Below are positions 36,084-37,994 of a stretch of 64,000 bases of DNA, one piece after another; positions within the stretch are counted from its first letter, which is position 1; the number at the start of each line of letters is the position of its first letter. The translations under genes were made by a program, and so were the position numbers. The notes below the pieces were generated by a model. The model did not search any database. It saw nothing but the letters and a program-made list of their open reading frames with translations, and was not told the origin of the DNA. Origin of the DNA: a virus (lineage: Duplodnaviria > Heunggongvirae > Uroviricota > Caudoviricetes); IMG/VR virus record IMGVR_UViG_2703718819_000006; one strand, given 5' to 3'.

Positions 36084-36159
36084 TGAATTTTGCGCTGAAA
36101 AAAGTGTTGCTAGGATGTTAGCAAGCTATGGTTAAGAACGTCTGCCGTAATTGTCTATC

Positions 36160-36235
36160 ACAGCGTTGAGCGGTCTGGTTTATGTTAGCGGAGTCTTAAT
36201 CTGGGTGATTAAAAGGCCAAACCGCTCAACGCTGT
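36160..36235. other. long hairpin (about 19-bp near-perfect inverted repeat, about 36-nt loop) 3' of tRNA-Ser
   Basis: CACAGCGTTGAGCGGTCTGG ... CCAAACCGCTCAACGCTGTG. Confidence 0.5.
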
Positions 36236-36238
36236 GTC

Positions 36239-36325
36239 TGGCGGAGAGTAATGGAATCGAACCATCATCGCTTGCGCAATGGGACGGTTTTCAAGACCGC
36301 TTGAGCACCATGCTCCCTACTCTCC
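36239..36325 (-). tRNA. tRNA-Ser (anticodon UGA), type II with long variable arm
   Basis: Hand-folded: acceptor GGAGAGT/ACTCTCC, anticodon loop CTTGAAA, T-arm GATGG-TTCGATT-CCATT, encoded CCA. Confidence 0.75.
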
Positions 36326-36971
36326 AATTGTTGTGGTGCCGGGTGCCTCCCGGTGTCCTTTGGCTGGTTATCCACCGTGAACGGGGCCACAGATGTCATA
36401 AGATGAGCAATATAACCATTTCCCCGCGTGCGCTTAGCCGCATTCACCACAACGGAAAGAGCATTCACATCTCGCGTGCCGCCACGAATAGCAACTCAGA
36501 GAGTCGAACTCTGAAAATGCTCTTACCTGTTGTGTGCTGTGTCACTCCCTCCGCTATTACCTGGCTTTGCCTCGACCTTTTAGGTTGCGTCCGATGATAA
36601 ACAGGGCTGTCGGAAATTTGTCTGTGGCACAGCGATAAGAGAACTCGATGCATTTAAGCCAAGCCCCATATGGGAAGTTCTCTTATCTGTTGTGCGCTCC
36701 GTTTCGTGGAGCTAACGGCGGGTGAACAGGCCGCACCAGGTTGGACATATTTCAGCGTTATGCTGTTGCAAGAGAGCCAAATTGTGATGGTCGGTGCTGA
36801 ACTCCGACACAGGGTTGTAGCAAGCCCCGCAAAGCGCGCACTACTGTAGTTACGGCACATCAGCCTGTGCATTCATCACAATGTTGAGAACACTGGTTGT
36901 CACGCGGCAACGCAACATTTATTCATAAATTGGGATATGAACCCGTTACGCCAATGTTCTCAATATTATGT

Positions 36972-37047
36972 TGGTGCCGGTTAACGGACTTGAACCGCTG
37001 GCCATTCGCTTACAAAGCGACTGCTCTACCAACTGAGCTAAACCGGC
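36972..37047 (-). tRNA. tRNA-Thr (anticodon UGU)
   Basis: Hand-folded 76 nt: acceptor GCCGGTT/AACCGGC, D-stem GCTC/GAGC, anticodon loop TTTGTAA, T-loop TTCAAGT, encoded CCA. Confidence 0.8.
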
Positions 37048-37051
37048 AATT

Positions 37052-37138
37052 TGGTGGGGAGTGATGGAGTCGAACCACCCGAGTCGCAATGACGGTAGAT
37101 TTACAGTCTACACCGCTACCTCTACGGACTAACTCCCC
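37052..37138 (-). tRNA. tRNA-Tyr (anticodon GUA), type II
   Basis: Hand-folded 87 nt: acceptor GGGGAGT/ACTCCCC, anticodon arm GTAGA-CTGTAAA-TCTAC, long variable arm, T-loop TTCGACT, encoded CCA. Confidence 0.8.
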
Positions 37139-37143
37139 TAAAT

Positions 37144-37218
37144 TGGCGATGGTGGGTGGATTCGAACCACCGACCAGTTGGTTAACAGCCAACTGCTCTA
37201 CCGCTGAGCTACACCATC
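37144..37218 (-). tRNA. tRNA-Asn (anticodon GUU)
   Basis: Hand-folded 75 nt: acceptor GATGGTG/CACCATC, anticodon arm GTTGG-CTGTTAA-CCAAC, T-arm GGTGG-TTCGAAT-CCACC, encoded CCA. Confidence 0.85.
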
Positions 37219-37480
37219 AATTCAGCACTGCCAGTATTTATTACTCAACAGTGCCAATCGCGGCGGTGTTAGTTTCTGCCAGGAAACGCACCGCTACTTG
37301 CACTTTCCGTTAGTGCCAGACGTTTTCGACTTCGCTCAATAGAAGGCAAAATCTTTAAGTAGATGATGTTTCTGAGGACAGCACCTACTTTGTAATTCAT
37401 ACAATGTGATGTATGGAATCATTTGTTGTGAAAACAGGCACCAATGGCAACAGTGGTTAAACCTACACAACAATCCTGTC

Positions 37481-37605
37481 TTCACAACGTTGAGGCCACT
37501 ACTCCGATTGAATGTTTGCCCAACATGTTACATATCAACGCTCGCCGGTATCTCTGTGAATAGAACCTTAGAATTGATAAAAATGTAATGGCCTCAACGT
37601 TGTGT
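37481..37605. other. 15-bp perfect inverted repeat separated by about 95 bp (potential long stem-loop) upstream of tRNA cluster
   Basis: CACAACGTTGAGGCC (37481-37495) and GGCCTCAACGTTGTG (37591-37605). Confidence 0.45.
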
Positions 37606-37963
37606 GCTGGCTAACCATACCAGCCGGGCTACGTCGCCGCTTTTTAACCCAGTATAAACGACATAATTAAACAAAATGACGTAACAGGATGGGCGGTCAG
37701 TGGCTAAGAATCCGGGAGTCATATGGAGTTGAAAATATACCAACCGCCCATTCTGTTACTTCATCGGAGGGAACATGAATGTTCCCTCCTGCGTTCTGCA
37801 ATCACACTCGCTCAGTGTGTCCCATTTCGGTAACGAGGCTGGAAACTGACCTCGCTGGTGTTTGGCTTATTAGGCTACTGCCAGATAGACTTCTTCGTTT
37901 GCACTTGTATTTAAGTTCAAACAGTCGCGTCTCAACGAAAACAAAGTCATCTTATACACAAAA

Positions 37964-37985
37964 GATAAGTAAGTAAATACTTATC
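37964..37985. promoter_or_regulatory. copy of recurrent GATAAGTA...TACTTATC palindrome
   Basis: GATAAGTAAGTAAATACTTATC. Confidence 0.3.
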
Positions 37986-37994
37986 AATATGTTT

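Follow-up and report, generated by a model that had tools for sequence, protein, structure and literature searches.

What does a phage gain from 1.9 kb of apparently non-coding DNA that surrounds four tRNA genes and is packed with long inverted repeats? The question is raised by the virus record IMGVR_UViG_2703718819_000006, of which a stretch of 64,000 nucleotides, referred to here as the window, was analysed. The original prediction, made from the letters alone, had placed the repeats between 36140 and 37990 and had proposed additional small stable RNAs, degenerate tRNAs, or a region for recombination or attachment beside the tyrosine recombinase gene. We classify the window as an SSU5-like phage-plasmid, since the region matches Escherichia phages CMS-2020a and Cyrano at ~97% and, more distantly, Salmonella phage SSU5, Klebsiella and Enterobacter plasmids and Yersinia pestis pMT. 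Our analysis favours, with a probability of roughly 0.7, a single untranslated RNA operon predicted on the minus strand (36062-37977), in which a leader resembling the mRNA-like part of transfer-messenger RNA (tmRNA) precedes hairpins, four tRNAs, spacer modules and a trailer.

Every repeat named in the original prediction was present, with slight shifts of coordinates, and their density exceeds chance: among the five longest local inverted repeats of the window, four fall within the 1.85-kb region. The palindrome and the 19-bp stem at 36160-36235 (the trailer) had been recognized in the original prediction, and three further long repeats had escaped it (those with arms given at 37676-37764, 37483-37604 and 37425-37488). 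Outside the spacer between two of the tRNA genes, the hairpins are as follows.

37766-37789, minus strand: hairpin formed by the 11-nt palindrome (37766-37776 and 37779-37789), with compensatory double changes at 5 of 7 pairs (variants GGAGGGAACA, GAUAGGGCAUG, GGUAGGGCA)
37676-37764, minus strand: 22-bp hairpin (arms 37676-37697 and 37743-37764, 22 nt, 91%) with a variable 45-nt loop; its helix of 24 pairs is 99.6% paired, with many G·U pairs on the minus strand only
37606-37666, minus strand: two short conserved hairpins, one at 37629-37666 and one, GGCUGG..CCAGC, at 37606-37625
37483-37604, minus strand: 20-bp hairpin CACAACGUUGAGGCC.../...GGCCUCAACGUUGUG (arms 37483-37502 and 37585-37604, 20 nt, 95%) with an 82-nt loop; 6 pairs with double changes
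37425-37488, minus strand: 14-bp hairpin GUUGUGAAGACAGG.../...CCUGUUUUCACAAC (arms 37425-37438 and 37475-37488, 14 nt); 4 pairs with double changes, reading GUUGUGGUCACGG/CCGUGGCCACAAC in Klebsiella
36159-36236, minus strand: 20-bp trailer hairpin (20-nt arms 36159-36178 and 36217-36236, 95% complementary), opening 1-2 nt past the last tRNA of the cluster

Comparison of the stems with related elements, which the original prediction had suggested as a check, revealed that pairing is kept in SSU5-family relatives through compensatory changes. For this comparison we aligned 21 diverged SSU5-family sequences, comprising phages and plasmids from GenBank as well as IMG/VR contigs that a conserved 19-mer had picked out. 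RNAalifold predicted 107 pairs, of which 103 were retained after one 4-pair long-range helix had been dropped. These pairs were 98.8% paired across the 21 sequences, and two-sided changes were observed at 20 of the 103, compared with 10.4±1.7 in shuffles (0/500) and 3-12 in slid controls. The covarying helices were the 37766-37789 palindrome, the 22-bp helix at 37676-37764, one small hairpin, the 20-bp helix at 37483-37604 and the 14-bp helix at 37425-37488. As examples, the 37483-37604 stem occurs as GAGGCC/GGCCUC, GAGAUC/GAUCUC and GAGACC/GGUCUC, the hairpin at 37606-37625 changes from GCUGG/CCAGC to GCUGA/UCAGC in 2 of the 21 aligned sequences, and the trailer stem reads GUUGAG/CUCAAC or, compensated, GCUGAA/UUCAGC, with one U·G pair possible on the minus strand only.

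The structure is also strand-specific. Non-Watson-Crick cells on the minus strand comprised 313 G·U and 7 A·C, an asymmetry that follows in part from folding that strand; the mismatches in repeats found by a strand-neutral search were also mostly G·T on the minus strand. When folded and compared with shuffles, the minus-strand RNA of 37219-37994 gave -272 kcal/mol (z = -9.4) and the plus strand -243 kcal/mol (z = -4.3). A binding or recombination site would keep its sequence, whereas these repeats keep their pairing while the sequence changes, and their wobble pairs are specific to one strand; the inverted repeats are therefore RNA hairpins and not protein-binding or attachment sites. Relatives carry a 10-nt deletion and a 1-nt indel in the region, supporting its non-coding status.

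The hexamer pair CACAAC/GTTGTG closes most of the hairpins and was seen 8 times against 1.1 expected (P ~2.5e-5). One GUUGUG strand is common to the hairpins at 37425-37488 and 37483-37604, and this sharing by neighbouring helices, in the order CACAAC-hairpin-GUUGUG-hairpin-CACAAC, occurs twice (37425-37604 and 36330-36534). Since the strand belongs to both, the two closing stems cannot form together over these 6 nt, which may represent a switch or the mere trace of common module borders. The trailer hairpin was found in all SSU5-like relatives, whichever tRNA comes last (Ser in the window and Klebsiella, Asn in the SSU5 type), and is followed by a terminator. The palindrome at 37766-37789 is not itself a terminator, as it has no U-tract.

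Several other readings of the arms were rejected. Matches to rrn/lambda boxA sites (UGCUCUUU...) numbered 26 in the window against 24.8 expected, with none in the region. An operator in double-stranded DNA, considered for the near-palindromic arms CWCAACGTTGWG, was rejected for the trailer hairpin, where bases change with compensation; it may still apply to the hairpin at 37483-37604. Integron attC-like sites (RYYYAAC/GTTRRRY) fitted the consensus in part on inspection, the helices being a continuous 20 bp without unpaired spacer or extrahelical bases. Long-range pairing of arms across the tmRNA-like leader was likewise set aside on inspection in favour of local hairpins, the local partner being the one that covaries (AAUGG with CUAUU in locus L139).

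That the repeats act as DNA, whether as attachment or recombination sites, as an invertible switch or as boundaries for module exchange, appears very improbable. An integrase gene lies 2 kb away, the region is mosaic among relatives with breakpoints at CACAAC-type repeats, the downstream cargo varies, with the caf1 island of pMT joining near a 14-mer half-site, and the loop of the 37483-37604 hairpin is exactly inverted in one relative. These observations are opposed by the covariation and the strand-specific G·U pairs, by the carriage of SSU5-like elements as ~110-kb plasmids in 256 of 270 places in complete E. coli genomes, and by the rarity of the inversion, in which a 72-nt loop is exactly reverse-complemented between L075 (7227-7846) and L105 (4849-5468), both homologues of 37483-37604, in 1 of 102 sequences. 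This is an occasional repeat-mediated event, as expected, rather than a switch, and on the same count an invertible DNA switch or promoter was rejected. The 14-mer ATGATTCCATACAT occurs at places that include the following.

34122-34154: inverted pair with 13-bp arms and a 7-bp spacer, just upstream of the tyrosine recombinase gene
37409-37422, minus strand: single copy
38421-38434, minus strand: single copy
28092-28105, plus strand: single copy

The window holds 5 exact copies and 1 two-mismatch copy of this 14-mer, with 0.55 expected, and the arrangement is kept in nearly all SSU5-like loci examined. The direct copies at 37409-37422 and 38421-38434 stand ~1012 nt apart and bracket the genes for 50 and 96 amino acids and the tmRNA-like leader; the first of them is probably a protein-binding half-site. 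The pair at 34122-34154, a candidate recombinase (lox-like) site or a bivalent operator in the style of P1 C1, lies outside the region and is the only site of core-plus-spacer (lox/FRT-type) architecture; none was found within the region. With covarying stems, strand-specific wobbles, a lox/FRT-like site elsewhere and inversion in 1 of 102 sequences, the attachment or recombination region of the original prediction could not be sustained.

Turning to the RNA operon that we favour, all four tRNAs and the neighbouring genes lie on the minus strand, and two sequences may mark its ends.

37949-37977, minus strand: probable sigma-70 promoter TTTACT-17 nt-TAAGAT, read from sequence, directly past the stop of the 96-aa gene
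36062-36084, minus strand: strong intrinsic terminator AAAGGGGCUUCGGCCCCUUUUUU at the operon end, read from sequence and kept in relatives

The promoter-like sequence is overlapped by an AT-rich 8-bp hairpin and is kept across the SSU5 family (TATGAT in Klebsiella); independent lineages have strong promoters at the same position (TTGACA-17-TATAGT in phage Alf5, TTGACA-17-TAGATT in L154 and L221). It probably drives the RNA operon. The terminator consists of a GC-rich hairpin, GGGGCUUCGGCCCC, and UUUUUU, and although a consensus scan did not list it, it is the only intrinsic terminator, the long hairpins having no U-tracts. In relatives, GGGGCUUCGGCCCCUUUUUU lies ~75 nt past the trailer hairpin.

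The block 37790-37980 is 85-92% identical among Escherichia, Salmonella, Klebsiella and Yersinia elements and is thus more conserved than the ligase gene (75-82%) and the 96-aa gene (63-77%). Judged by its sequence, 37803-37945 resembles the mRNA-like part of bacterial tmRNA.

37903-37945, minus strand: 5' domain (UUUGUUUUCGUUGAGACGCGACUGUUUGAAC..AAGU; the span is also given by its ends, GUUUUCGU..GCGACUUUGCGG), ending in an A-rich run before the resume codon and near-invariant in alignments A1, A3, A4 and A5
37867-37902, minus strand: tag-like frame GCA AAC GAA GAA GUC UAU CUG GCA GUA GCC UAA UAA, that is ANEEVYLAVA and two stops
37855-37884, minus strand: helix-5-like stem-loop CUGG...CCAG, its loop carrying the stop codon; 99.3% of cells paired
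37820-37854, minus strand: pseudoknot A, with the stem CGAGG/CCUCG at 37834-37854 and the loop UUCCA pairing with UGGGA at 37820-37824
37788-37820, minus strand: stem-loop ACACACU/AGUGUG (helix 96% paired, with covariation at 4 pairs), to which a second pseudoknot may belong, between the loop GAGCG and CGC further downstream

In Rfam, the sequence leading into the tag is matched with AAAAAUAAuU-GCaAACgA of the tmRNA consensus (AAAGAUAAAUGCAAACGAAGAAAUGUA to AAAAAUAAuUGCaAACgAcaAaaAcUA), and this alignment of the resume region explains the weak hits to tmRNA, tmRNA_permuted and beta_tmRNA at the element in the window, P1, RCS47, D6, Ro157 and MK54. After a second IMG/VR scan, the collected loci yielded 228 instances of the tag frame, and every one of them runs for exactly 10 codons to a stop (228/228), which is kept as UAA, UAG or UGA. 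The instances comprise 22 peptides in 42 nucleotide versions and follow the pattern A-N-[DE]-[DEN]-x-[YFVMIC]-[LM]-[AMVI]-[VA]-A. A pattern of the SsrA type (AN[DE]..., with a hydrophobic C-terminus ending in A) is present in at least six phage lineages; the E. coli SsrA tag is ANDENYALAA, and the phage peptides include the following.

This window: ANEEVYLAVA
SSU5: ANEDTYLAVA
Klebsiella: ANDNQYLAVA
P1: ANDDLMMVAA
HK620: ANEEMYLAVA
Alf5: ANDNVFLAVA
Cba120: ANDNTFLAVA
PhAPEC7: ANEEAYLMVA

Third codon positions of the tag are variable in 10 of 10 codons (mean entropy 0.97), and first and second positions in 4 of 10 each (0.45 each). In relatives (SSU5 and HK620-like sequences) the frame has neither a start codon nor a Shine-Dalgarno sequence, with in-frame stops upstream and no AUG between. 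In the window alone, an in-frame ATG 16 codons upstream of the tag creates a 26-aa open reading frame (ORF); this ATG is not conserved.

The structure of the element was evaluated with 22 pairs (the helix-5-like stem and both pseudoknots) in 37 diverse sequences (alignment A5). The pairs were 90.5% paired, compared with 76.7±0.8 in shuffles and 35-45% in slid controls, and two-sided changes occurred at 15 of the 22 (0/500 shuffles). The helix-5-like pair at columns 111/134 changes from G-C to A-U in 16 of the 37 sequences (CUGG/CCAG to CUGA/UCAG). The two helices of pseudoknot A have 3 and 4 pairs with two-sided changes, and its loop and downstream strands read CCAA/UUGG, CCGA/UCGG, CCAG/CUGG and GUCG/CGAC across lineages; these counts are conservative because the SSU5-type rows are misaligned by one column in A5. 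Both stems of the second pseudoknot covary as well and hold in other lineages, the second of them being weak in the SSU5 type (A5). Just past this second pseudoknot region, inside the conserved leader, the K. oxytoca plasmid NZ_CP064109 (L012) carries an insertion of ~260 nt (alignment A1, columns 196-457) bounded by terminal inverted repeats of ~38 nt and apparently by a TTGCAG target duplication, resembling a miniature inverted-repeat transposable element.

The element is widespread. The block occurs in 258 of 5426 complete E. coli genomes, almost always on ~110-kb plasmids and never annotated, and 14 distant chromosomal copies were found in E. coli genomes. One of these belongs to an HK620-like prophage, where it is flanked by the genes for the Q antiterminator and the holin and comes after the late promoter and its terminator; used as a query, it retrieved 766 phage records that include HK620, Klebsiella siphophages, FelixO1-like, Vi1-like (Cba120), N4-like and Erwinia phages, P1 and the SSU5 family. 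The homologues usually adjoin tRNA genes: in Alf5, Cba120 and PhAPEC7 the element lies within or beside a tRNA cluster, on the tRNA strand and in unannotated DNA, and the ban leader of P1 also contains it. An exact 19-mer of the element was also present on the 5.6-kb contig CAJWER010000199.1 (L117) of an uncultured Chloroflexi metagenome-assembled genome, probably a mis-binned phage or plasmid contig.

The element shares with tmRNA (SsrA, RF00023, and the two-piece or permuted form RF04321) an A-rich run, a GCA resume codon, a startless tag of 10 codons, a stop in a helix-5-like loop and H-type pseudoknots past the tag. It differs in that no end-formed tRNA-like domain and no tmRNA pseudoknot 1 were recognized in it, in being much shorter with low Rfam scores, and in being phage-encoded, beside tRNA genes or inside long leaders. 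Because ARAGORN made no call, the Rfam scores lie far under the gathering thresholds and no tRNA-like domain of its own was found in the SSU5 type, we file it as tmRNA-like and not as tmRNA; the lack of that domain would also explain why ARAGORN and Rfam miss it.

G3·U70 is the alanine identity element. Domains with G3·U70, a T-arm and ACCA were found by a scan 150-500 nt downstream in two other lineages only and are not general: CGGGGCG/CGCCUCG-ACCA in FelixO1-like phages, and GGGUAUG/CGUGUCC-ACCA, a domain of ~140 nt, in the lineage with the tag ANDDVVLMAA. In Alf5 (L126, NC_031082), an unannotated 83-nt tRNA-like sequence at ~2664-2746, CGGGGCG...GCGGG-UUCGAGU-CCUGC-CGCCUCG-ACCA with G3·U70, lies 155 nt past the tag start and just upstream of an HNH endonuclease gene; ARAGORN is silent on it. 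As candidates for the missing domain, the downstream tRNA-like sequences of Alf5, Cba120 and PhAPEC7 were rejected, since they have their own acceptor stems and G3·U70 occurs in Alf5 only, unconserved.

Phage ssrA genes are reported in the tmRNA database papers only from mycobacteriophages (Bxz1 group), Bacillus phage G and DS6A (PMC4131195; PMC11915505). Those RNAs are likewise phage-borne derivatives of the trans-translation RNA in phages with tRNA genes; unlike the present element, which has an mRNA-like domain and pseudoknots and no recognizable tRNA-like domain, they are either canonical and found by ARAGORN or consist of the tRNA-like domain only. No prior description of the element in enterobacterial phages was found in the literature searched, most subscription-journal papers lying outside its reach. 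The element would thus be a variant, previously undescribed in enterobacterial phages, of a known kind of RNA, with a function suggested by its sequence.

A number of results weigh against an operon headed by a functional tmRNA-like RNA. ARAGORN called a tmRNA neither in the window nor in the 228 instances, and no acceptor stem, T-arm, G3·U70 or CCA belonging to the element was found in the SSU5 type. The beta_tmRNA match in the window scores 17.3 bits against a gathering threshold of 84, so the curated score is not reached, and homologues score 11 bits (tmRNA) and 20-26 bits (tmRNA_permuted), both against 47. Because no tRNA-like domain of the element was found in this lineage, the canonical mechanism of trans-translation cannot be put together from the parts observed. 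The ratio of nonsynonymous to synonymous differences (Nei-Gojobori pN/pS) does not separate the tag frame, at 0.71, from the -1 frame, at 0.65. The basal stem CACAACGUUGAG of the 37483-37604 hairpin is nearly invariant and may, whether as RNA or as DNA, be recognized sequence-specifically. By consensus the promoter is weak, and it fell under the threshold of the promoter scan, which therefore did not list it. Processing by ribonuclease (RNase) III and RNase P is suggested by stem length, about two helical turns, and by precedents. Finally, no transcript match was obtained in Y. pestis pMT1, where the RNA-seq small RNAs sR082 and sR083 map near ymt and elsewhere, outside the region.

These results raise the alternative that the tmRNA-like element is untranslated, either a captured or decayed fragment of host ssrA or a mimic that titrates SmpB, ribosomal protein S1 or RNase R, with the tag kept for structural reasons. 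No tRNA-like domain was found, the Rfam scores stay under threshold, pN/pS does not tell the tag frame from the -1 frame, and part of the tag lies inside the helix-5-like stem, so that structure constrains it. A phage tmRNA of DS6A that consists of the tRNA-like domain only has, moreover, been reported to inhibit host tmRNA (PMC4131195). We nevertheless consider this alternative rather doubtful: the fixed 10 codons and a stop of any of the three kinds in 228 of 228 instances, the variation of all third positions with first and second positions mostly kept, and SsrA-like peptides in at least six lineages speak against it, and a decaying fragment would neither exceed the ligase gene in conservation nor keep covarying pseudoknots.

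The tRNA genes themselves were readily recovered. ARAGORN and Rfam, which the original prediction had named as a check, returned its four tRNA genes (Ser, Thr, Tyr and Asn), each on the minus strand, and no further tRNA in the region (Rfam at E <= 10).

36239-36325, minus strand: tRNA-Ser(UGA), called by ARAGORN; it scores 44.6 bits with tRNA-Sec, the Rfam model that represents tRNA within the clan
36972-37047, minus strand: tRNA-Thr(UGU), called by ARAGORN and reaching the Rfam gathering score
37052-37138, minus strand: tRNA-Tyr(GUA), called by ARAGORN and reaching the Rfam gathering score
37144-37218, minus strand: tRNA-Asn(GUU), called by ARAGORN and reaching the Rfam gathering score

The T-arm-like hairpins of the region are therefore not intact tRNAs. 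Additional tRNAs and known RNA families were rejected, as the same searches gave four tRNAs, a sub-threshold STnc100 match and the weak tmRNA-family hits only. Of the small stable RNAs and degenerate tRNAs that had been proposed, what stands is a set of conserved RNA hairpins, an STnc100-like module and the tmRNA-like block; an extra intact tRNA does not.

In Cyrano, the Ser, Thr and Asn genes are contiguous, while in the window Ser and Thr are separated by an insert of 646 nt, whose identity to the segment of the P1 ban operon between tciA and tRNA-Thr is 87-90%. The spacer, in the window and in P1-family phages, is built of units CACAAC-A-GGUAAGAGCAUU...loop...AAUGCUCUUUCC-GUUGUG, in which the stems are kept and the loops are exchanged wholesale, several loops holding T-arm-like mini-hairpins. 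Its features in the window, which include the remaining stems of the original prediction, are listed below.

36874-36973, minus strand: long hairpin directly past the tRNA-Thr 3' end (23-nt arms 36874-36896 and 36951-36973, 83% complementary, whose core is the 13-bp stem predicted at 36886-36960); loop with T-arm-like GGGUUCAUAUCCC
36628-36694, minus strand: hairpin unit CACAAC-A-GAUAAGAGAACU...AGUUCUCUUAUC-GCUGUG, containing the predicted 12-bp stem GATAAGAGAACT/AGTTCTCTTATC (36634-36645 and 36676-36687, 100% complementary)
36448-36534, minus strand: hairpin unit CACAAC-A-GGUAAGAGCAUU...AAUGCUCUUUCC-GUUGUG, whose loop holds the predicted T-arm-like hairpin, now placed at 36495-36515 (minus strand CAGAG-TTCGACT-CTCTG)
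36330-36453, minus strand: STnc100-like, tRNA-shaped module of 124 nt, with an acceptor-like stem UGUGGUG/CACCACA and a terminal 5-bp hairpin beside the 3' strand

The hairpin at 36874-36973 is common to P1, P7, D6, RCS47 and Ro157 and is a perfect 19 bp in P7. The unit at 36628-36694 has a homologue beside two tRNAs in Klebsiella phage MK54, with compensated stem changes (GGUAAGAGCAUU/GAGUGCUCUUUCC), and is absent from CMS-2020a SCU-175; P1 carries the 36448-36534 stem with a different loop. The STnc100-like module follows the latter unit and is closed by GUUGUGGUG/CACCACAAC. On 36330-36453 the Rfam model RF02076 gave 42.2-42.5 bits, below the gathering threshold of 47 (E ~1e-7), and with tRNA-Ser excluded the match covers model positions 31-147 of 206 and not the full model. 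The same sub-threshold match recurred in P1-family phages (P1, RCS47, D6 and Ro157) and in lambdoid phages, and was seen where genes are spaced apart in ENT47670, phiES15 and ST64B; a true T-loop is present at the terminal hairpin in relatives L134 and L221. The module shares with the prophage small RNA family STnc100/PasD (RF02076) the closing stem UGGUG.../...CACCA, the terminal hairpin CCGGGAGGCACCCGG and a prophage or phage context, and differs in its score under gathering, its coverage of part of the model and its setting between a hairpin unit and tRNA-Ser. A Y RNA (YrlA) was rejected, the only hits being of 25.6 bits, against a gathering threshold of 69, over the tRNA pair in P1-family loci.

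The 5' part of the P1 ban operon comprises a C1-controlled Pban/Op72, a dicF-like region, tRNA-Asn, tRNA-Thr, the upl/plp spacer, tciABC, tRNA-Ile and ban. The order of leader, tRNA-Asn, tRNA-Thr and hairpin spacer is the same in the window, and the P1 ban and SSU5 leaders have a 58-nt core in common (E = 3e-5) that bears the tag; the P1 leader also has a CACAAC-type hairpin unit. In contrast to P1, the leader of the SSU5 type carries a hairpin series of its own and lacks the dicF-like terminator, and the operon of the window stops at its terminator where P1 runs on into tci and ban. The P1 spacer is, in addition, annotated as coding. Nothing was found on these RNAs in the literature searched on the P1 ban operon and SSU5.

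This annotation bears on whether the region codes for small proteins, either plus-strand homologues of Upl and Plp or minus-strand ORFs of 62 and 72 aa, which we regard as highly improbable. The plus-strand ORF 36670-36849 gives hits, at E = 1e-32, to PHROG families derived from P1 'Upl', and P1, RCS47 and JL22 annotate upl and plp, opposite in strand to the spacer hairpins. However, the differences from P1 in the upl frame are spread 5/11/8 over the codon positions, with no third-position excess, and the plp frame is interrupted in the window. In P1, where upl and plp lie at 2661-3230 in locus coordinates (L002, NC_005856), plp runs antisense across tRNA-Thr. The ORFs are uncalled in P7, D6 and the RefSeq annotation of relatives, and relatives delete or swap whole units whose lengths are not multiples of 3. 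Since conservation is not of the coding type, plp is broken and plp overlaps tRNA-Thr, P1 upl and plp are probably spurious ORFs and annotation artefacts. The original description of the ORFs of the region as short and probably spurious is in line with this, there being no Pfam hits and no PHROG hits other than the P1 'Upl' families.

The hairpins could also be stable small RNAs acting in trans, as base-pairing regulators or protein sponges, and not signals for processing or insulation; this seems unlikely. Loop motifs are partly kept, with AUGUUGGG and AAUCGG in the loop of 37483-37604 and AAAGACUCCGC in that of the trailer; a regulatory role is ascribed to the related STnc100/PasD family, which is expressed; and the modules recur in intergenic gaps of unrelated temperate phages. 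Most loops, however, are the least conserved parts and are exchanged wholesale between relatives, and one loop inversion is tolerated.

The repeats, the tRNAs, their conservation and covariation, the strand asymmetry, the homology of modules to P1 and other phages, and the tag frame with its pseudoknots are direct observations; for the RNA operon, we infer a promoter, co-transcription, RNase processing and any activity in trans-translation. A single precursor would be transcribed from ~37977 to the terminator at 36062-36084, beginning with the ~160-nt tmRNA-like element (5' domain, tag frame, helix-5-like stem and one or two pseudoknots). This would be followed by conserved hairpins of 14-22 bp, tRNA-Asn, tRNA-Tyr and tRNA-Thr, and then by the P1 ban-type spacer (CACAAC...GUUGUG units and the STnc100-like module), tRNA-Ser and the trailer hairpin. 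The inverted repeats most likely delimit and stabilize the individual RNAs of the precursor, as host RNase cleavage sites or as barriers; stems of 18-23 bp match the length of RNase III substrates, and two of them open 1-3 nt past a tRNA 3' end. Host RNases would release the tRNAs and other structured RNAs, and the dense structure may keep the 1.9-kb untranslated RNA folded and shielded from Rho and RNase E. Most likely, a phage-borne and functional derivative of tmRNA's mRNA-like part is what the tmRNA-like element represents, with a tag frame that ribosomes probably read.

Such an arrangement has precedents. The T4 tRNA cluster is co-transcribed with the stable RNAs species 1 and 2 and is processed by RNases III, P and E, with an RNase III cut in its leader; DicF is excised by RNase III and RNase E; and PeSLs are mobile regulatory cassettes in T4-type phages. 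The likeness lies in untranslated phage RNA operons with tRNAs among structured RNAs cut by host RNases and, for the PeSLs, in repeated promoter/stem-loop modules bordering variable cargo. It is one of organization.

The genes on either side of the RNA stretch are as follows.

38806-40128, minus strand: DNA ligase gene, upstream
Minus strand: small genes of 59, 71, 50 and 96 aa, upstream
35668-36018, minus strand: gene for an N4-gp49-family protein, downstream
Minus strand: glutaredoxin gene and YafO toxin gene, downstream
32920-34023, minus strand: tyrosine recombinase (integrase) gene, downstream, ~2 kb from the RNA stretch

The DNA past the operon terminator (34343-36018 in the window; loci L005, L006 and L011-L014) is a spot of variable cargo, holding the gp49-family protein, glutaredoxin and YafO in the window and, in relatives, the caf1R/caf1M F1-capsule genes (Y. 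pestis pMT), AbiH, AbiGi, the YafO toxin, PhoH or a porphyrin biosynthesis gene. The pMT homology ends inside the 37425-37488 hairpin, beside the 14-mer ATGATTCCATACAT, and the caf1 island joins there. The order of tmRNA-like element, tRNA, terminator and gp49-family gene is common to the N4-like phage PhAPEC7 (L128, 2501-4729) and the window (35668-37945), and the tRNA-Thr and tRNA-Asn genes are ~80% identical to their N4-like counterparts. This common gene order and tRNA identity suggest that the whole module may move between phage families.

As to what the finding means, we tentatively propose, as a possibility that falls short of being the probable outcome, a mobile tmRNA-derived RNA in at least six unrelated enterobacterial phage lineages, namely SSU5-like and P1-like phage-plasmids and HK620/P22-like, FelixO1-like, Vi1-like and N4-like phages. 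It would supply its own tag (…Y/F-L-A-V-A in place of …Y-A-L-A-A) and alter or redirect ribosome rescue and the tagging of stalled proteins during infection, working with a separate tRNA-like piece, for example the adjoining T-arm modules, or with host factors. If so, hundreds of well-studied phage genomes (P1, HK620, FelixO1-, Cba120- and N4-like) would hold an unannotated, constrained RNA related to ribosome rescue, and ~5% of complete E. coli genomes would carry it through SSU5-like plasmids. Annotation would be corrected on two points, since upl and plp of P1 are probably no genes and the long palindromes do not serve as attachment sites. What passes for 'intergenic junk' beside phage tRNA genes would consist of reusable, covarying RNA modules common to phage families, which bears on how phage tRNA and small RNA operons are built and processed. 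Lambda-P22 hybrids and Mu depend on trans-translation, and whether phages manipulate this process would become a testable question.

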